A DNA stretch of 63,933 bases, counting the filler, from Collodictyon triciliatum (taxonomy: Eukaryota): the NCBI GenBank assembly GCA_043381765.1. It is 4 parts of 4 records of this genome, joined end to end, with 100 filler letters (N's around TTAATTAATTAA, not from the genome) between each part and the next. Parts side by side here need not be neighbours in the genome. Positions count along the whole stretch, not along the records: positions 1 to 26,182 come from JBHJMP010001024.1; 3 more parts are not named here. One strand, given 5' to 3'. The notes beneath the pieces were generated by a model that saw nothing but the letters and a program-made list of their open reading frames with translations, was not told the DNA's origin and made no database searches. This document shows, piece after piece, positions 165-48,912 of the stretch (its first letter is position 1; every line of letters begins with the position of its first letter). The position numbers were made by a program, and so were the translations under genes.

Positions 165-3469
<3,305 letters not shown>

Positions 3470-18272: not shown

Positions 18273-19448
18273 TAATTCACATGTGAACGCACATTGTTTC
18301 CTGATATTGGACTGTGTGTATACTGGCACTAAAGGAGAACATGGAGTCGATTCGTTGAGTTGGAGTGCTACAGGCTGTCTTTATAATCTTGCATAGTTTC
18401 CTACGCCTAAAGAATAAGTTAGAGATTAAATGACCCATTAGTGCGCAAGAGGCTCTTTTTGGACAAACAAACAAACAAACAAACAAACAAACAAACAAAC
18501 AAACAAACAAACAAACAAACAAACAAACAAACAAACAAACAAACAAACAAACAAACAAAGGTAGACAGATAGATTAGTAAATGTTATTTTGACAATTGTT
18601 GGTGTTTGGGATCAAATAAGAACATCGTGGAGGCTGTTTTGCCCANNNNNNNNNNNNNNNNNNNNNNNNNNNNNNNNNNNNNNNNNNNNNNNNNNNNNNN
18701 NNNNNNNNNNNNNNNNNNNNNNNNNNNNNNNNNNNNNNNNNNNNNNNNNNNNNNNNNNNNNNNNNNNNNNNNNNNNNNNNNNNNNNNNNNNNNNNNNNNN
18801 NNNNNNNNNNNNNNNNNNNNNNNNNNNNNNNNNNNNNNNNNNNNNNNNNNNNNNNNNNNNNNNNNNNNNNNNNNNNNNNNNNNNNNNNNNNNNNNNNNNN
18901 NNNNNNNNNNNNNNNNNNNNNNNNNNNNNNNNNNNNNNNNNNNNNNNNNNNNNNNNNNNNNNNNNNNNNNNNNNNNNNNNNNNNNNNNNNNNNNNNNNNN
19001 NNNNNNNNNNNNNNNNNNNNNNNNNNNNNNNNNNNNNNNNNNNNNNNNNNNNNNNNNNNNNNNNNNNGCCTGTTATAATAATAGGCATTCATATAACATT
19101 AGGGAGAAATATTCCAAAAAGATAAACCAAATAATAATAATGAAATTTTTACAATTTGATTTTTATTGATACTTTAATATGAGAATATTTTCATTAAACT
19201 ATAGTAGAATGGGCCTTATGAAGATCAGCGATGACGGGTGATTAACAACTAAAGAAACATGCTGAAATGATATTTTTTTGATGGATTAACATATACTTTA
19301 TACATTGGCTTACTTTTTTTTTTAATCAAAAAAAGCACTACTTGTTTTGACTCATAGATCATACTTTGGTGATTTAAATGATTTCACAAAAATAATACTT
19401 TGCGATTCTCAAGTATAACTATATTTTCCGCTTAGATGCTTTAAACCT

Positions 19449-22400
19449 ATGGTTATTTCTTTAGTAATCATCTTAATGGTTTCATCAACATCTGCTCATC
19501 TATTTGAGAGGTAAGTCCTAACTTTTTTATTATAATAATCATTCCTTTAAATTTGTGAAAAATGTTGATATTTTGGCTTTGGTTTGGAGTTTTGTCCATA
19601 TTTTATTTTAAAAAAATTTCATTCACAACTTTCACTTTATATAGTTGTCAGTATAAAACAAATGATTTACTGTCAATGAAAATGGAGGATGCTTTCAAGA
19701 TCTTACTCAGTCACTATGAAAAAAATTGCCTTTATGCCAACCAATGTTATGAAAGAAACCCATCAAAGGTGTTTGTTAATGGCGAACAAAGGAATCTAGA
19801 CTTTATGATAAGCTTTAGTTCATGGGGTCTGGAGAGAAAAAATTTTGTGGATGAAATTAACTTCTACCAAAAACAGCATTACCACCATTTAAATGGACTC
19901 AAAAATTCGACATCTATTAGTCCAAGTGAGAAATATTCTGGAGATGGCGTAACATATCAATATCAGCAACTTGTCAAACTGTACGATCTATTCAACGGTG
20001 ATAATTGGTTTAACAAGAACGGATGGAATGATGAAAAAATACCTCTATGTGATTGGTATGGAATAAAATGCCACCGATTATGTACTCCTGAGAGTTATTT
20101 GGTGAGGTTTAAATATTACATTCGACCAAATTATGCCTACTCACAATCACTATTATAGAACAACACCTGCCCTGTGGTCAAAATAGAGCTACCATTCAAT
20201 AATCTTTTTGGCGACATCGAATCCGCGGTTCTGATTCTCCAACAATTTCCTTTTATTTCGACGCTGGATTTTGAGTTTAATTTTATTTTCGGAAATCTTC
20301 CTGATTTTCATCTACCGGCGATTATCAAATTAAGCCTCTACAGTAATAAAATTACTGGAACTATTCCAGATTTCAAAGGAATACCAAATATAGAGTATTT
20401 GAGATTAGACAAAAATGAATTAGATGGGTTTATACCCAATTTTTCCATGATTCCAAAAATGAATGTTTTGTCTATCGGATCAAGCAATAAGCTCACAGGT
20501 TCTTTTTTTTTTTTTTTAAATATAAAAATCACAGGGATGTAAACATTTTTTCTAAATTGAAATTTCTTGCAGGAACCTTGCCAGATTTTTCTTACATGGC
20601 CCTCATTCAAAAACTATATATTCTTGAAAGCGGAATTTATGGTTGGTATTATTAATCGATAATAGCCCATTATTAATTGAAATTACTGAATCAAGTTTTA
20701 TTTAGGAACGATACCAGATTTCGGTAGAATTCCAATTATTAAGATTCTTTATCTCACGGATAATCAGCTTACTGGTAAGGGAAACTGCTGTCCAAAAAAT
20801 TGCTTTTGTTTTACATTTTGAAGAGGCACATTCAAGTTTTAAAATTCTCCTGTTGAAAAATTTTATTTTATTTAGGAACAATCCCAAGATTTAGCTCAAC
20901 CCCCATGATCCAGGGGTTGTATATGGAAAAAAATTTCTTAAATGGTTAAAAGTAAAAACATTGTATACCATTTTGTAACTCACTAACTCAAGAAATCTAG
21001 GAACAATACCCGAATTCTCAAATATTCGAAATGCAAAGGAAATCTACGTTCCCTTCAATAGGTTGACTGGTTGGTTTTCATATCGATTTTATGTTTCAAT
21101 TCCATTCTAATTTACTAGTACAGGAACAATCCCAGACTTTGGTCATATTCGACTTGTCAATGAAATATATTTTCACGGGAATCAACTAAAAGGTTTGTAA
21201 CTTTATCAAGTTTATAAAATAGTGTTAATTTTAAAATAAAATTACTGCAGGAAATATACCAAACTTCAAAAATATACCAAGGGTTCAAGTGGTCTCATTC
21301 TACCAAAATTATCTCAGTGGTAAATTTAGGCAATTTAAAGAACATACATGACTTTGTACTGACTTCTTCATATAGGAACGATTCCAAACTTCGATGGCAT
21401 TCCAAACTTGAGAAAGATTTTCCTGCATAATAACCAGTTGTTTGGTAATTTATTTATATTTTTATACAAATACTTTTTACTAATCATTTCATTAGGAAAT
21501 ATTACAAATTTCAGTTCTATTCCAATTATTGAGGAGATGTATCTACATTCCAACCAACTCGAAGGTATACAATAAAATATTCCATTAATTAACTTATTTG
21601 CTGAAGTTTTTAATTTGCAGGAATAATACCGAACTTCAATGAATTACAGCTAATTAAAATTCTCTATCTGTCTGATAATCAACTGTCTGGTAATTGATAA
21701 CAATTTCAAATTTTACATACGATTATGCTTCGATTCCAAAAGCTCAACTTTTCTGATTTTTTAAGGATATATTCCAAACTTCAGTGACATTAAAAGTGCC
21801 GAAGTCATGTATCTTTCTATTAACCAGCTGAATGGTAATCAAATGAATCTTTCGATTTCTATTTCATTTTTTAATTACTACACACAGAACCATCTAAAAA
21901 TTTTATATTGCAGGACCAATTCCCAATTTCAGTTTTATTCCACTAATCAAAGAGATCTATCTTGATAGTAACCATTTGAACGGTAATTTAAATGATTCAA
22001 AAAAATTATTGTACAATTCTAATGAATATTTTTTGTCTAGGAACCATTCCAAACTTCGACAGCATCCCCATGATTCGGATGATTTTACTTTTAAAAAATA
22101 AGTTACATGGTATGTTAAATGAACAGGTTAAATATAATTATATGTTCATTATTAATACTGATTTTCTACTATAGGAACGATCCCAAACTTTGTTGGAATT
22201 CCGCATATCGAGGAAATTAACGTGTCTAACAACTACCTGACGGGTAAGTTAAGATACCATTCTCTGTAATTAATTTATTGAATCAAATAATATTTCCAGG
22301 AATGTTATTTGACCTGGATAGCGTCACAAGTGTTCGAAGGATTCATCTTGATAAGAATCGTCTAAAAGGTAATATGAAGTATCTTATGGTGCACCTGAGA

Positions 22401-25261
22401 TTTCACTAATTCAATGAATTAGGAACAATTCCAAACTTTTCGCACACAAAAAAATTGGAATTCTTCTCTGCTTACGGAAATGAAATAGAGGGACATGTTC
22501 CCAGCTTTGAAAACTGCATAAATTTGAGGGAAATAGTATTATTCAGAAATAAATTGGATGGTACATTACCCTCTTTCAAACTTTTAAATATTACGCGAAT
22601 CGATATTAGTGAGAATTTAATATCTGGATTTATCCCGAATGATTGGGATATTCCATCAATAAAGTATATTGACCTTTCTTGGAACAAAATAAATGGTGTA
22701 ATACCAGGTTATTTTCAAGATTTGCAGTTACTAAAAACACTTGCTCTGTCTCATAATCGATTGCATGGAACTTTACCAGCCAGATTTTGGAATCTACCAA
22801 ATTTGGTCACCATCGATTTAAGCAATAATTCTTTTTCAGAAGATATTGGCATGTTTATCGCACCAGCCTATGATGAGGGAGCCTATATTTACCATTATGA
22901 AAACCTTATCCTTGACAATAATCAGCTATTTGGAGCGATCAATTGGAGGATTTATAACTCTGCTATTAACATCAAATCTTTAAGTGTAAGAGAAAATAAT
23001 ATTACAAAAATTGAAGAGCTCACAGGCTTATTAAAGTGGTCTACCTTTGATCTAACTGGAAATCCGATTACGGGAAGCATACCGGAATCATACAGCGGGT
23101 TTTCAAAGATGGAGTATTTGGGATTGAGTAATACTTTCTTGAATCATGGAAAATCAAATTTTCTCCCTAATTTCATGACTTACACAACACCTTTCAATTT
23201 GAAGGATGAATCAAGACGCTACTTGTGTCCATCAGTGGTTTTTGAATCTAATTTTATCGTTATGAAGGTTGATTTAAATCCGAGTTACTACAACTATGAG
23301 TTTTGCAAATGTTTGCCTGGATATTTTGGCTTTGGAGATAATTGTATTCAATGTCCGAGGGAATGTGATTGTCTAGATGGAGTATCACTATCTCTTTGTC
23401 GAGGTTCACCCAACGTGCACTCCATCAAATCGATTGTCCCTTGTCCAAGACCAGAATCATGCAGCACTTTAATTCCGTATAAACCTTCAAATTCAAGTAT
23501 GAAAGTACAAATAAATCATTTGTGTGATGAAGGATACGAAGGTCGAGTGTGTTCGAAATGCAAAGAGGATTACGGAAGCCGAGGTAGGTCATGTGTCAAA
23601 TGCGAAAAAGGGATTATATATTCCACTTTGATTCTCGGATCCTTCGGAATTTTCTTATTCCTCTGCTATCTGTATTTTTCAGACATATCAGCCTCAGGTA
23701 AATTAGATCGATAATTTATTTAGCAAAAAAAAAAAATAATCATTTTTGTAACGCTTATTTTTCAAACCGAAGTACTAATGATTTTGAACAGCAAAACTCA
23801 GAATTATTATGTTTCACATGCAAACACTCTCAATAATATCACCAGGATTTACTATATCAAATGAAGCTGATAGTTTCATTCACATATCTTCATCAATTGG
23901 TTCGGTTCAATTTCCAACCCTTTCATGTTTACTTGGAGAAGAAAATGAACTGCTTTATTTACTTTTCAGCTTTATGAGAGTGCCTTTCATTTTAATTGTT
24001 GGCTTGTTGACATATTATTTTGGGTACGGCCATATGCGAAACAAGGTAAAATCGAACCGATTAATAGTTGTATTTAATCCAATTCCATTCTTATCTTTCA
24101 TTTAAGTTTATCCAAATAATTCAATTTTTACAGGCTGTATTCATCACTTTGAATCTTCTTTACTTGATATACTACTCGATTTCAAGAGAAATTTTTGGCA
24201 TTTTTGGGTGTACAGTCTATGACAGTGGAGAGGACAAGTGGTATCTAAATTACAAACCCTGGGTTGAATGCCACCCGGCTTCAGTTGAATACAAGGAGCT
24301 ACTCACGACATCTGTCCCAATTTTTGTTTTGTATTTAGTTGGATTGCCCTTCTTTTCATGGTGGAAAGTCAATACCATGTTCGAGAGGCCAGGGTATGAG
24401 CCTGAAGCCCGATATGGATTCCTGTATTTACCTTACAAAGAGGTAATTTTTTATTAGATTTTCAATTTTTCTTTTCTTTTCTTTTTTATTTTATTTTATT
24501 TTATTTTATTTTATTTTATTTTATTTTATTTTATTTTATTTTATTTTATTTTATTTTATTTTATTTTATTTTATTTTATTTTATTTTATTTTATTTTATT
24601 TTATTTTATTTTATTTTATTTTATTTTATTTTATTTTATTTATCTCTGCTTCAAGAAAATAAAAACTTTCGATGGCTAGCGAACCAAAGCCAACATCTCC
24701 ACCATCCTGCACAAAATTGAAAGAATAAAAAAAAAAAGAAAATAAAAACTTTCATGCATAGAGTTTCAAGTACTGGGAATTTGTCACGATGACACGTCGC
24801 GTGGCCTTCTCATTTATTCTGAGTGTGATTCCATATAATTTGCCATCCGTATTCTTTTTGCTTCTGGTAATCGTAATTCAGGTCTGGTTTGATCATATTT
24901 CCATATTTCGATGTGAAGTTTGCACTTTCTGTTCGCTCTCTAAATTGGCATGACTGTGCAACAGGGCTCAATATGGATGCAAAAAAAATATGAGCCCTAC
25001 AAATCAAAGATCGAAAATCAAATGGAACTATCCAGTTTGCATATAATTCTTGTGTCGTTTTTTCTCTCACTTTTGTCAGCGCTCTTTGGGTCACAATGGT
25101 GGATTGGCTTTACACTGATTGGGATGAATTTAGTCTGGCTTCTTTATTATTCAACCATTGGTTTCTTCATTCCTCTTTACCGAAGTGGTTTCATCAAAAA
25201 GAAATTCATCAAGATGAAAAATTTCAAAAAGTCGTCCCTTACCGACCCACTGACAGATTGA
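19449..25261 (+). CDS. Signal peptide + LRR N-cap + ~20+ LRRs + Cys-rich region + multi-pass (~7TM) membrane receptor-like protein
   Basis: Exon 1 (19449-19510) MVISLVIILMVSSTSA; exon 2 LRR cap (WFNKNGW..LCDWYGIKC); exon 3 20159-20498; 14 exons of 69 nt (20573-22368); long exon 22423-23697 with LRRs and CKCLPGYFG/CDEGYEGRVCSKC; TM exons 23792-24045, 24134-24442, 24762-~24881 (YWEFVTMTRR) and 24965-25261. Confidence 0.9.
24481..24641. repeat. (TTTTA)n intronic microsatellite
   Basis: Direct reading. Confidence 0.95.
24671..24735 (+). mobile_element. 65-nt 3'-end LINE insertion with poly(A) and 18-bp target-site duplication
   Basis: GATGGCTAGCGAACCAAAGCC...CCTGCACAAAATTGAAAGAAT(A)n matches the reverse complement of ~17965-18024. 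Flanked by AAGAAAATAAAAACTTTC at 24653-24670 and 24736-24753. Confidence 0.85.
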
Positions 25262-31308: not shown

Positions 31309-32994
31309 TTACTTGGAGTGGTAGAGGAAGACAACACCAAAGACAAAGAAGCCCAGCATCATGGAGAAGTTTCCGGCATAGTACGGATAGGCGGCGACGA
31401 TGAAGCGCTCAAACTGGTCGTGGCGGAATGGGCGAACAGTCACCTGCTCTGCAAGGTCGACCCACGTGTATCCGAGGCGGTGGTGTGTGAGATGGAGCGT
31501 AAAGACTCCGTAGACATCGGGGATTTGGAAGGTCTTTGCAAAGACGCCTTGCTTGTTGTGCTCCATCCTGAGCCGGATGTATGGGTCCAGCATCACAAAC
31601 TCCATCTGCACAGAGTCAGACTCGTACGAAACCCACTCGCCGTTCACAAGCTCTTGGATATCCACACTGGCATGCTGTCGATGGGTGGATGTGTTCGTGT
31701 ATTCATAAAATGACGCATTCATGGATTCATGGATAGATGGGTTGATGGAAAGGGAAATATAAGAAAGACCGATCAGCATAAAGTGTATAAGTCTTCGTTT
31801 GTCAGCATACCAAATCCTGCTTGACGGTGTAGAGCGCAGGTGTTGTCTTGTCATCTTGGAAGTGGCGAAGGTTGGATGTTCGCAATAGACCACGGTCCTT
31901 AAAAGTCCAGTCAGCAAGTTGCAGAGCGAATTTTTTGTTTCCATACGGCTTGTCTGATTTCTTTGTGGAGACAGCATCAAAGAATCTGGAGAGAAAAGTG
32001 TTAATAACAAGGATATAAATATTTTATGTGTAAATTCTGTAAAGCCCGGTTGCTTTCCTCCCGTTCATTTTAATTTCATGTGGAGTGAAATCTATCTACT
32101 GATTTGTTTTTGTTTTTGTTTTTGTTTTTGTTTTTGTTTTTGTTTTTGTTTTTGTTTTTGTTTTTGTTTTTGTCTTATCACCCAAGTTCTGAATTCTCAA
32201 GATGGTCTAAACTAGATAAAGTAACATTACTTGTTGCTGAAAAGATCAAGAGAGCCGACTATTGAGACGCGGGCATTATTTCGTGCTTGCATCACCGAGA
32301 CCAAAGAAAGGGTTGTGCCCGCTTTGATTTTTCCAGATGGAACAGAACCCGGAGCGACAGAATAAGCTGTTTCACTGCCTTTCAACAAAGAAAATACCCA
32401 TGAGTTACGGGTGTCGATGGTGTGGCCAATGCCTTCAAATACGAGACCGTTCTCGGGAGTGTCGAAGATTATTGATTTTTCTGGGAAGTTATCGACCACG
32501 ATGGCAGTATGGTCGCCTCCATCAAGAGAATCCTCGTAGTTGAAATGGTCTGTGACGTACGAGTCAGCATCGAGGAAGCGCACGCCACAAGATTTGGTAA
32601 TGTCCCGAGTGGGCTCGGCCAGAGTCGGGCTAACTCCGACAAGAACATTACGCCCAGAGTCGATGAATTCGGTGATGGTGCTGGCAGAAACATTCCCTGA
32701 GAAGGCTATTGGTATATTGATGAGTCTTGAAAAATATTTTTTGGTTTTTTTACTTCGTATGTATTCGTTTCGTTTCTATGTTCCTGTTGTTTTATGAAAA
32801 AGAACAAACGGTTATTGATATTAGAGCTCGGATGACTTTCTATTTTAAAAAAACGAAAATATCATGGCAGATAATCATACTTGCAGCGCTTGGTGCAAAA
32901 AGCACTATGTTGTCGTAGATGTATTCGCCATACGAGACAATGTTCAATTCAGATGACTCCTCAGCAATCCAAAAGTCAAGGGTGTGGCCTTTCT
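31309..32994 (-). CDS. DDOST: Oligosaccharyltransferase 48 kDa subunit (OST48/DDOST/Wbp1); 5' exon(s) probably in the gap 33262-33788
   Basis: Diagnostic motifs QARNNARV, VQMEFVMLDPYIR, PDVYGVF, VTVRPFRHDQFERFIVAAYPYY and a C-terminal TM. Exons 32881-32994, 32231-32697, 31811-31953, 31309-31674. Confidence 0.93.
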
Positions 32995-36796: not shown

Positions 36797-38525
36797 CTAG
36801 TAGGGCGGGTAGCCAGGTTGTTGAGGAGGATACCCTGCTGGTGGGTAGCCAGGTTGTTGAGGAGGATAGCCAGCTGGTGGGTAACCAGGTTGTTGAGGGG
36901 GATAGCCAGCTGGTGGGTAGCCAGGTTGTTGAGGAGGATAACCTGCTGGTGGGTAACCGGGTTGTTGAGGAGGATAACCTGCTGGTGGGTAACCGGGTTG
37001 TTGAGGAGGATAGCCAGCTGGTGGGTAGCCCGGTGGAGGCGGGTAGGCAGTTGGTGGATAGGCGGCTGGTGGGTAATTCGCAGGTGGGTAATTCGCAGGT
37101 GGGTAGCTGGCTGGTGGGTAGTTGGCTGGTGGGTAGTTGGCTGGTGGGTACGCTCTTGGTTGGGCTGCTGGCTGGCCGTAGAATTGCATGGACTGCTGGG
37201 TCTGGTAAGCTGGCGCTTGGAAGCTGGCCTGCATGGGGAGCGGAACAGGGGCTGGTGTAGGGGTACTCGCTGGGGTTGCAGATGGGTTCTATGTTGGGAT
37301 GAACGTATCAGTATCTGGGTGTGATGATTGGATGATTGGATGATTGGATGATTGGATGATTGGGTGATTGGATGATTGGGTGATTGGATGATTGGATAAT
37401 TGGATAATTGGATAATTGGATAATTGGATAATTGGATAATTGGATGATTACGCTGGAAATGAACTTTGTGGTCACGTGGACTTTTCCGGCGCTCTTTGAA
37501 TGCTTGTCGATAATGGTGTACCACTGATCAGTGCTGGTGGAGCTGACGAGGATGCTGACAGGGATAGTGATGTTACCAATGTAATCATCGCTAAGCATGT
37601 CGGAGTCGTAGACTTCCAGAATGAGTGGGTGCGTCATGACCACAGAGCTGATGTTGCTGAGTATTGACATAAGAAATGTCAAAATAGTGGCTTCGGTATT
37701 GGTAATGAAAATGATGGCAGTTATATAGGGGAGCAGTATCATGCTGTAAAATGAAAATCATTTGCTTAAGCTATATTGCACAAGTGGACACGTGAGAAAT
37801 GAAAGAAATGAGTATTCGAGGCTAAATTGTTCAGAAAATGTGTTGGAAAAAGGAGGAAGTTGAAGAGGTGAAAAAATTGAGGGGGTTATGGCTTTGTTGC
37901 TTGTTGACAATTTACAATTTGAATTCCTGGTTGAAGACGGGATTTTTTCCTGCTCCGGAAGCTACTCGGGTTTTGTGGCTCACACCAAAGAGCTTCAGTT
38001 TGACGTACGGATCCATCTTGCCTGTTTATGGCGTTGTTAAATGAACCCGATAGTGTAGGTATTGATATGTGAACGACAGGACCTCAGAGGATAGCATAAG
38101 GTAGAATGAACCATCCATGTGAGGGGTGATGGCAAAATCAACAGAAGCCTACCAAAAAAGTCCTGATCCTTCAGCCCGCTCGCCTCAACGACTTTGATGA
38201 TGCAGAGAAAACGGGAAGTTTATATATTAAGTACTGACGAAATAAATACAAAAAAGTCTACAAAAATGATATCCTCTTTTGTATGAAATCTTTTCTTTTA
38301 TGAATAAAATAAAATAAAAGCTATGTGAGCAGAGGCTTGGGAAAAAACGTTAAAGAGTGGTTTCTGGCTCTTCATATATTTCTATCTGGTCAAAGCTTAC
38401 TCCTCAAGGGCTTCAGAAGGCAAAGGATACAAATCATAGTTGTGTGATGACTCATATAAATAATGTTAAAAATATTATGATAAAAAGTGAGACATACTAT
38501 TGACTGAGAGTTGTCCGGTGGCCAT
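36797..38525 (-). CDS. C2-domain protein with C-terminal XYPPX (GYPP) repeats
   Basis: Exons 38498-38525, 38153-38191, ~37917-38022, ~37452-37656, 36797-~37289: MATGQLSVNIVEASGLKDQDFFGKMDPYVK..NPVFNQEF..LEVYDSDMLSDDYIG, then ~6x PGYPPAGYPPQQ. Confidence 0.88.
37325..37449. repeat. Octamer (GGATGATT)n/(GGATAATT)n array filling an intron
   Basis: Direct reading. Confidence 0.9.
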
Positions 38526-43927: not shown

Positions 43928-45102
43928 ATGGAGGCCATCACACAGTCACAGTCCAATATCGACGCCAACGAGCCCATCCTCACAGTAAATCCGAACCGCT
44001 TCGTCATTTTCCCGATCAAATACCCTGAGATATGGAAGATGTACAAGAAGGCCGAGGCAAGGTTAGTGCCCCAAAACAAAACAAAACAAAACAAAACAAA
44101 ACAAAACAAAACAAAACAAAACAAAACAAAACAAAACAAAACAAAACAAAACAAAACAAATATTAATGGAATCAAGATAAACACTTTCGAATGAATCGAT
44201 ATCTCAATTATCATTCAAACTTCAGCTTCTGGACAGCCGAAGAGATTGACCTCGCTCAGGACCTCTCGCACTGGGCAAAGCTGACCTCAAACGAACGCCA
44301 CTTCATTACCCACGTCCTAGCATTCTTCGCTGCAAGTGATGGGATTGTAAATGAGAATCTGGCCCAACGTTTTTGCCAAGAGGTTCAGCTACCCGAGGCC
44401 CGCTGCTTCTATGGTTTCCAGATGGCCATCGAGAATATCCACGCCGAGACGTACAGCCTTCTCATCGACACATACGTTCGTGATGCTGAAGAGAAATCAC
44501 GCCTGTTCAACGCACTAGACACCATCCCGTGCGTCCAGAGAAAAGCCGAGTGGGCTCTACGTTGGATTACCTCATCTCAATCATTTGCGGAGCGTCTCGT
44601 AGCTTTCGCTGCTGTCGAGGGCATATTCTTTTCGGGAAGCTTCTGCGCCATCTTCTGGCTCAAGAAACGCGGTCTCATGCCTGGATTGACCTTTTCTAAC
44701 GAACTCATAAGCAGAGACGAAGGAATGCACTGTGACTTTGCTTGCCTCCTTTACTCCATGCTGCAGAACAAGCTATCTGAAGACCAAATCCGAAAGATTA
44801 TTTGTGACGCGGTGGATATAGAGAAGCAGTTTGTGACAGAGGCTCTCCCGGTGGACTTGATTGGGATGAACGCCAAACTGATGACTGATTATATTGAGTT
44901 TGTGGCAGACCGTCTTCTTGTTGCTCTCGGCCAGTGTAAAGCTTACGGTACCATCAACCCTTTCGATTGGATGGAGCTCATCTCACTGGAAGGCAAGACC
45001 AATTTCTTTGAAAAAAGGGTAGGCGAGTACCAGAAGGCCGGAGTCATGACCTCAACCACCAGCTCTTACAACCAGTCCTTCACTTTAGATGAGGACTTTT
45101 AA
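43928..45102 (+). CDS. RRM2: Ribonucleoside-diphosphate reductase small subunit (R2)
   Basis: Exons 43928-44061 and 44226-45102. Motifs [64 protein letters not shown] and terminal FTLDEDF. Confidence 0.98.
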
Positions 45103-46471: not shown

Positions 46472-46599
46472 TACTTTAGAGTATTCCGTTTGTGCAGAAC
46501 GCCTACAGGCGAAACAAACCAGGTCCTTTGTAATTACTTGCTTTTGTCTTGTCGGCATATAACCTTGTGGCTGATCAGGAGCGCCCTTTGAAAGATTGG

Positions 46600-48912
<2,313 letters not shown>

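Follow-up and report, generated by a model that had tools for sequence, protein, structure and literature searches.

The DNA stretch analysed here (the window, 63,933 nucleotides with filler included) came from Collodictyon triciliatum and carries a predicted receptor gene with leucine-rich repeats (LRRs) at positions 19449-25261 on the + strand. The gene model comprised 22 exons with a coding sequence of 4080 nt, which had no internal stop and encoded 1359 amino acids, and GT...AG borders were found in all 21 introns. The gene consisted of 14 LRR exons with three exons upstream and five downstream. We regard it as a real nuclear gene without damage, from a protist closely related to the collodictyonid Diphylleia. 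Its parts are listed below, where the bit scores of the LRR exons refer to a profile built from the 14 units and "contig" marks the span of a matching environmental DNA contig.

19449..19510, + strand: exon 1; ATG at 19449, signal peptide (first 19 residues, mean hydropathy 2.04), donor GTAAGT
19645..20101, + strand: exon 2; N-terminal region with an LRRNT_2-type cap (Pfam E 0.0011, weak); AG and GTGAGG at its borders
20159..20498, + strand: exon 3; holds several intron-free LRRs and has a phase-1 end; Pfam LRR_4, LRR_1
20573..20641, + strand: LRR exon 1 of 14, degenerate repeat; 35.1 bits, leave-one-out 14.6
20706..20774, + strand: LRR exon 2 of 14; 43.5 bits
20876..20944, + strand: LRR exon 3 of 14; 43.7 bits
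21001..21069, + strand: LRR exon 4 of 14; 39.8 bits; contig 20984-21134
21124..21192, + strand: LRR exon 5 of 14; 45.5 bits
21251..21319, + strand: LRR exon 6 of 14; 37.9 bits; contig 21210-21360
21376..21444, + strand: LRR exon 7 of 14; 41.1 bits; contig 21346-21550
21496..21564, + strand: LRR exon 8 of 14; 43.6 bits
21621..21689, + strand: LRR exon 9 of 14; 39.0 bits; contig 21509-21659
21766..21834, + strand: LRR exon 10 of 14; 39.1 bits; contig 21674-21824
21914..21982, + strand: LRR exon 11 of 14; 42.5 bits
22041..22109, + strand: LRR exon 12 of 14; 43.0 bits
22175..22243, + strand: LRR exon 13 of 14; 41.5 bits
22300..22368, + strand: LRR exon 14 of 14, divergent repeat; 32.7 bits, leave-one-out 5.6
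22423..23697, + strand: long exon (1275 nt); irregular LRRs, cap region, Cys-rich stalk and first membrane helix; Pfam LRR_8 (3.7e-19), LRR_1, LRR_4
23792..24045, + strand: membrane-module exon, collinear with homologues; the intron after it lies where isoform P0002 leaves P0301
24134..24442, + strand: membrane-module exon, most conserved part, with a Cys-bearing outer loop; no Pfam family
24762..24881, + strand: membrane-module exon with the W-E ... R-R motif; the next intron is the divergence point of five Diphylleia isoforms
24965..25261, + strand: last exon; two membrane helices (hydropathy), basic tail and TGA stop

Structure and support of the exon array

A script check of each of the fourteen segments (starts 20573 to 22300) showed that all were 69 nt long with AG before and GT after. 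Every LRR exon opened with GA, which completed a GGA glycine codon whose first G was the last base of the preceding exon, and as this codon is split after its first base all introns of the array are in phase 1. All 15 introns around the 14 LRR exons split the glycine codon in this way and the local sequence NNG|GA was identical at every array junction. An earlier note on this DNA had described fourteen 69-nt phase-1 exons of one LRR each with a split glycine codon, and the script reproduced this for 14 of 14; its statement that the flanking LRRs are free of introns also held, for exon 3 (20159-20498) as well as for the long exon (22423-23697). Since each exon starts at the glycine of G-x-I-P with the codon split after base 1, one exon corresponds to one turn of the LRR solenoid. 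The exons are consecutive, equal in length and flanked by introns of the same phase, and the reading frame is therefore kept when a unit is added or removed.

Plant-type (PS) LRRs have the class consensus LxxLxxLxxLxLxxNxLxGxIPxx. Each 69-nt exon encoded exactly one repeat of this type, G-T-I-P-x-F-x-x-I-P-x-I-x-x-I-Y-L-x-x-N-x-L-x, which at 23 residues is one residue shorter than the class consensus. Framework columns were nearly fixed, with G in 14/14 units, I3 and P4 in 12/14 each, and F6, N20 and L22 in 13/14 each, while positions 8, 11, 14, 18, 19 and 23 each held 7 to 9 different residues. The conserved framework was thus as the earlier note had described, but its claim that the exposed positions differ in every exon failed at position 16, a usually exposed site in the LxxLxLxxN strand, where tyrosine was present in 9 of the 14 units. 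This tyrosine occupies the middle variable position of the strand. With the geometry usual for LRRs, the tyrosines would be stacked as a ladder on the sheet presumed to face the ligand. The ladder was not common to the Diphylleia homologues P0002 and P0003.

The profile of the 14 units was run over six frames of the whole window. The 14 units scored 32.7 to 45.5 bits (E 6e-9 to 5e-13) and the repeat units of exon 3 scored 8.5, 26.3 and 11.7 bits, whereas outside this gene no match on either strand exceeded 8.2 bits. These scores therefore exclude chance for the array.

The introns flanking and between the LRR exons were 51 to 101 nt long with a G+C content of 23% compared to 36% in the exons. 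An in-frame stop was present in 11 of the 14 introns downstream of an LRR exon, and retention of two others would shift the frame. The one behind LRR exon 7 (21445-21495) is 51 nt long, a multiple of three, and contains no stop in frame; its retention would add 17 residues with the frame kept. In 9 of the 21 introns a CTRAY branch-site motif lay 9 to 18 nt upstream of the acceptor, compared to 17% of shuffled introns. The splice model is mainly supported by its nearly gapless alignment with expressed Diphylleia proteins. The spliced model showed 36.5% identity to P0003 over 1256 columns, 37.7% to P0002 over 854 columns with 14 gaps and 39.6% to P0001 over 1036 columns, and only 2 gap positions were found in approximately 375 columns across the 14-exon stretch in the alignment to these transcript-derived proteins.

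Short low-depth DNA contigs from four environmental runs also covered the gene, and several of them matched exon-intron-exon spans with no differences (20984-21134, 21210-21360, 21346-21550, 21509-21659 and 21674-21824). No joints or indels were listed for the environmental contigs on 19400-24440. These matches support the assembly, with the qualification that some of the runs may be the assembly's own source. One low-depth contig of run X1 matched at two places, first near 21403 and then, after 26 letters of different sequence, near 20760, and may come from a paralogous LRR gene or another organism.

Protein architecture, relatives and membrane module

The predicted layout of the protein from the outside inwards was a signal peptide, a plant-type N-terminal cap, approximately 30 LRRs (mostly of 23 residues), a Cys-rich stalk and a multi-pass membrane module. 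The LRRNT_2 cap scored 19.6 bits in this gene, below the Pfam cut-off of 20.7, and was above the cut-off in homologues P0007, P0008, P0009, P0047, P0066 and P0254. Hydropathy showed at least 6 hydrophobic segments after residue 1005, the first at residues 1005-1023. Framework residues and the family motifs of the stalk and membrane module were conserved. Pfam and hydropathy results thus bore out the earlier proposal of an LRR ectodomain and a multi-pass membrane domain in one protein. The Pfam families found in the exons and 13 homologues were LRR, cap, NIDO, FG-GAP, DUF7630 and, in one homologue, a sub-threshold 7TM_transglut. In the same set Pfam showed no ROC GTPase or COR domains and no PKD, REJ, GPS or PLAT domains of the polycystin-1 type, and no protein kinase domain was matched in the exons of this gene.

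Among 5.8 billion proteins, the closest were transcript-derived proteins of the same overall layout that were 41-43% identical to the long exon over 98-100% of its length. The next-best matches were plant LRR kinases and receptor-like proteins, which matched in the LRR part only. Exact look-up showed that all ten top homologue clusters belonged to Diphylleia rotans, and the neighbouring gene for the ribonucleotide reductase small subunit had its best match in the same species with 87% identity. The cluster look-ups thereby supported a protist host with D. rotans as the nearest relative, and put the window within or close to the collodictyonids, a group of freshwater predatory flagellates. The family is large in D. 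rotans, where 20 clusters looked up corresponded to approximately 19 distinct Trinity genes. In addition, P0270 of Anaeramoeba ignava, annotated as LRR-containing, combined LRRs with the same membrane module and P0353 from a cercozoan metagenome bin was a module-only relative; the architecture therefore reaches beyond collodictyonids. The LRR arc would recognise a ligand outside the cell and relay the binding to the membrane module, and prey, pathogen or kin sensing may be its function.

The most conserved membrane exon (24134..24442) had only 65 relatives at E≤1e-3 among 1.84 billion representatives. A Pfam scan of 44 of these relatives showed 20 with LRRs, some with FG-GAP or NIDO in front, 19 without any family and 2 with other families only, while 4 matched PF06011, one of which also had LRRs and is counted among the 20. 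PF06011 was found in none of 13 further homologues, so that 57 relatives were scanned with 4 matches, and its cut-off was reached only by P0277 (28.9 compared to 28.5 bits). The membrane exons of this gene had no Pfam match, PF06011 included. In the Atlas, the two nearest clusters carried PF06011 in 25% and 12% of their members, and the module profile had 7 matches among the 5.8 billion proteins, none of them annotated as PF06011. The link of the module to PF06011 is accordingly a weak lead.

Two AlphaFold models on family alignments reached a predicted local distance difference test score (pLDDT) of 91.8 and 85.2 and a predicted template modelling score (pTM) of 0.86 and 0.85. In Foldseek neither model had a match at E≤1e-3, their highest VIA Z scores (6.3 and 6.8) lay within noise for helical bundles, and the module profile had 0 matches with PDB sequences. 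As the fold and profile searches were empty, the module is a small family without a solved structure. Judged by its parts, the protein would be a ligand-binding surface receptor coupled to this multi-pass and possibly ion-conducting module.

Age and origin of the array

The mean DNA identity of the 14 exons was 52.8% (91 pairs, maximum 68%), and adjacent pairs, at 52.5%, were no closer than distant pairs. Third codon positions were 37.6% identical across the 14 exons and synonymous sites were saturated. Tandem Repeats Finder reported no array over the LRR exon region, and the repeat finder gave exon-centred matches only, reaching into the last 17 or so intron bases (branch site and acceptor). 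With splice signals trimmed, the 105 intron pairs were no more alike than shuffled ones (similarity 12.78 compared to 12.89). A search with the 14-unit profile of the introns, the minus strand and the rest of the 64 kb showed no relic, inactivated, inverted or extra LRR exons. When each unit was left out of the profile in turn, units 2-5 and 7-13 still scored 22-40 bits, while unit 6 scored 16.6, unit 1 14.6 and unit 14 5.6; flanking units were at 27.0 or less. Most central units thus appear closer to each other than to the end units or most flanking units, a pattern that fits expansion from within. Overall, the array looks old and stable and not actively reshuffled.

Intron positions in the relatives were read from the ends of Trinity protein isoforms, not from DNA; a scan for genomic loci of the relatives returned one contig of 60% G+C that matched by chance over 24 residues and contained no LRR gene. 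Truncated isoforms P0325, P0327 and P0342 left the full-length sequence exactly after an LRR glycine, the 5'-extended isoform P0322 joined exactly before one, and P0335 was without 12 residues in a deletion starting at one. Downstream of the array, P0002 diverged from P0301 at the site of intron 19 of this gene, P0313 diverged at the site of intron 20 within one codon, and P0312, P0005, P0330, P0331 and P0335 diverged at the site of intron 21. The intron site appears to be shared with Diphylleia because the isoforms break at the LRR glycine. If these ends are read as retained introns or alternative acceptors, several subfamilies would have introns at the same positions and the exon-per-LRR plan would be older than the diversification of the family. 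A skip or gain of a whole repeat was seen in 0 of 34 isoform pairs from 15 Diphylleia clusters. The family flanks kept a fixed spacing and the number of central repeats of 22-23 residues, as estimated by regular expression, varied among paralogues; in addition, a tree of the C-terminal region showed that ectodomain length differs between close paralogues. Whole repeats have therefore been gained or lost in the course of evolution.

The best explanation, to which we give a probability of roughly 0.78, is that the array arose in the distant past through tandem duplication of a unit of exon plus intron and that its copies diverged independently, with 14 constitutive exons today and an LRR arc that would bind a ligand. 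The unit would have been duplicated in tandem long ago, probably before the split from D. rotans and before the subfamilies of the family separated. Every unit would then have diverged independently, and the present array most likely consists of 14 constitutive exons.

Several observations weigh against this explanation. Intron retention in Diphylleia was judged from protein isoform ends instead of DNA, and constitutive splicing in C. triciliatum is extrapolated from the homologues. In the C-terminal region even the closest Diphylleia protein reached no more than 42% identity, and the comparison gave no one-to-one orthologue. Several donors of the gene model were weak (GTTGGT, GTTAAA, GTTTGT and GTTCTT). 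When repeats were matched by position to P0002 and P0003, the observed value was reached by 225 and 388 of 20000 permutations, but the repeat at the corresponding position came out as the best match in just 2 of 14 rows, so that support for a conserved repeat order is loose. An old duplication of exon-plus-intron units also looks the same as a very old intron gain, since the introns have no similarity to each other. Finally, P0324 and P0009/P0323, otherwise 98.9% identical, differed by the replacement of one Gly-to-Gly unit with an unrelated one (22 compared to 23 residues, including one bounding glycine). The swap may represent mutually exclusive exons, alleles or merged paralogues, and hints at exon-level variation.

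This swap and the 12-residue deletion at a glycine, both from Diphylleia isoforms, would fit with symmetric exons that are now being skipped, duplicated, swapped or converted to give a variable recognition surface like that of ROCO genes, and the equal-length phase 1-1 exons, the large family in D. rotans and the differing number of central repeats among paralogues all allow for such active diversification. ROCO genes of Ectocarpus and Saccharina with the same exon register show shuffling and alternative splicing in the excerpts of PMC3341825 and PMC11378527 used here. We consider it unlikely for the present gene, as no exon pair was more than 68% identical, identity did not rise between neighbouring exons, relic or inverted exons were absent, the introns of 51-101 nt leave no space for spare exons, and none of the 34 Diphylleia isoform pairs lost or gained a whole repeat; the unit swap, moreover, could stem from an assembly in which alleles or paralogues were merged. 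The phase-symmetric exon-per-repeat structure described in the earlier note was thus upheld, and active diversification as a reading of it was not supported at this locus, given the identity maximum, the lack of relics and of intron homology, and the absence of skips in the relative.

An intron-free LRR block could also have gained introns independently at the proto-splice site G|GA in 14 repeats. The flanking LRRs of the same register without introns, the introns that are alike only in their splice signals and the NNG|GA at every junction agree with this, but 14 independent insertions at one exact codon position would be needed, distant Diphylleia paralogues appear to use the same site and so do brown-algal type I LRR exons as far as the excerpts describe them. 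The central units are also more alike than the flanking ones, as after internal duplication, and intron loss from the flanks would explain the intron-free ends equally well. Parallel gain is thus quite improbable. A decaying or non-functional receptor copy whose regular structure merely survives would account for the several weak donors and for a third-position G+C of 0.36, far below the 0.48-0.68 of the neighbours; it is nevertheless hardly credible for a gene with an open frame over 22 exons and 4080 nt, every splice site intact, and conservation of the framework residues and of all family motifs of the stalk and membrane module. Ancient duplication of the exon-plus-intron unit followed by divergence remains the preferred explanation.

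Sequence surroundings and known systems

The third-position G+C of the LRR gene (0.36) was compared with values of 0.48 to 0.68 in the genes for the ribonucleotide reductase small subunit and OST48, the GIY-YIG gene, the open reading frame (ORF) 2174-3469 and other neighbours with Pfam domains; the comparison of 19449-25261 included 44167-45102, 31309-32775 and 2174-3469. Two unannotated repeat-rich ORFs had values of 0.37 and 0.42. Low expression, fast evolution or a different origin are possible sources of the A+T-rich coding sequence. The window was rich in microsatellites and contained several N runs, including gaps from 18627 to 19067. Approximately 35 copies of (TTTTA) were found in intron 20 (24467-24641) and a (CAAA)n run was located just upstream of the gene (18500-18560). 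The ORF at 46534-47013 (+ strand) encoded a GIY-YIG nuclease domain followed by a long trinucleotide repeat read as a Cys run, and the ORF at 36797-37288 (- strand) encoded tandem Pro/Gln/Gly/Tyr-rich units of the G-Y-P-P-Q-Q-P type in a stretch of 50% G+C.

The architecture of one LRR per exon is already known, and the present array is an unusually regular example of it. The plant gene ERECTA has one LRR per exon. The protein described here resembles plant LRR receptor kinases and receptor-like proteins in its LRR motif and N-terminal cap; unlike the receptor kinases it has no kinase domain, a multi-pass instead of a single-pass anchor and a repeat of 23 instead of 24 residues. LRR-containing G protein-coupled receptors (LGRs) join an LRR ectodomain to a multi-helix membrane domain of the rhodopsin-type seven-transmembrane (7TM) class, whereas no rhodopsin-type 7TM Pfam match was present here and the fold searches were without a clear match. 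Phase-symmetric exons with borders at a constant repeat position are shared with the LRR modules of NLRP3 and LGRs. In NLRP3, the excerpted text describes phase-symmetric LRR exons of 171 bp with borders at a constant structural position, one of which is skipped (PMC6642158), and these exons hold two RI-type repeats each compared to one here. Gonadotropin receptors are also cited for phase-symmetric LRR exons in the consulted part of PMC11378527.

The closest parallel in exon register was found in brown algae. According to passages of PMC3341825 and PMC11378527, the type I LRR exons of ROCO genes are 72 nt long and start at the glycine of G-x-x-P with the two bases of the split codon first. 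Both systems therefore have one plant-type LRR per equal-length exon in the same split-Gly register, with 69 nt here compared to 72 nt there. ROCO proteins are cytosolic ROC-COR GTPases, whereas the present protein has a signal peptide, a Cys-rich stalk and a multi-pass membrane domain. Ectocarpus ROCO loci, as presented in the excerpt of PMC3341825, have relic and inverted LRR exons in their introns, signs that were used to argue for shuffling, along with spliced variants; no relic or inverted exons or near-identical copies were present in this window.

The multi-pass module behind a large extracellular region is also reminiscent of the fungal PF06011 "TRP" (transient receptor potential) proteins Flc1, TrpR and Pkd2, although no fungal member with an LRR ectodomain was seen in these searches and neither predicted model of the membrane module showed a clear resemblance to a solved TRP channel. 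Pkd2 of fission yeast is described in the part of PMC9727806 consulted as a stretch-activated, calcium-permeable putative channel. Our literature searches showed no description of this receptor family or of a one-LRR-per-exon architecture in this lineage. A wider proposal is an undescribed large receptor repertoire in Diphyllatea (CRuMs), a predatory lineage that branches deep, in which a plant-type LRR arc is directly wired to a new multi-pass, possibly ion-conducting module and specificity is varied by exchange of single Gly-to-Gly LRR exons through mutually exclusive splicing or exon conversion; the unit swap between P0324 and P0009 hints at such an exchange. This proposal is speculative and unlikely. 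If it were true, the split-Gly site common to this gene and the brown-algal ROCO genes would point to an ancient plant-type LRR exon unit predating the split of the eukaryotic supergroups.

Receptors of plants, brown algae and vertebrates provide the textbook cases in which arrays of one LRR per exon serve as material for exon shuffling, and the present gene is a further, clean case from CRuMs, a supergroup in which few genomes have been sequenced. The structure found here permits diversification, and the sequence carries no sign of it happening now. As the split-Gly intron site is common with brown algae, its origin becomes testable as either an inherited LRR exon or repeated gain at a proto-splice site. 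Finally, the gene leads to a receptor family of considerable size, with no solved relative for its membrane module, which is represented mostly by Diphylleia transcripts with single members in Anaeramoeba and a cercozoan.

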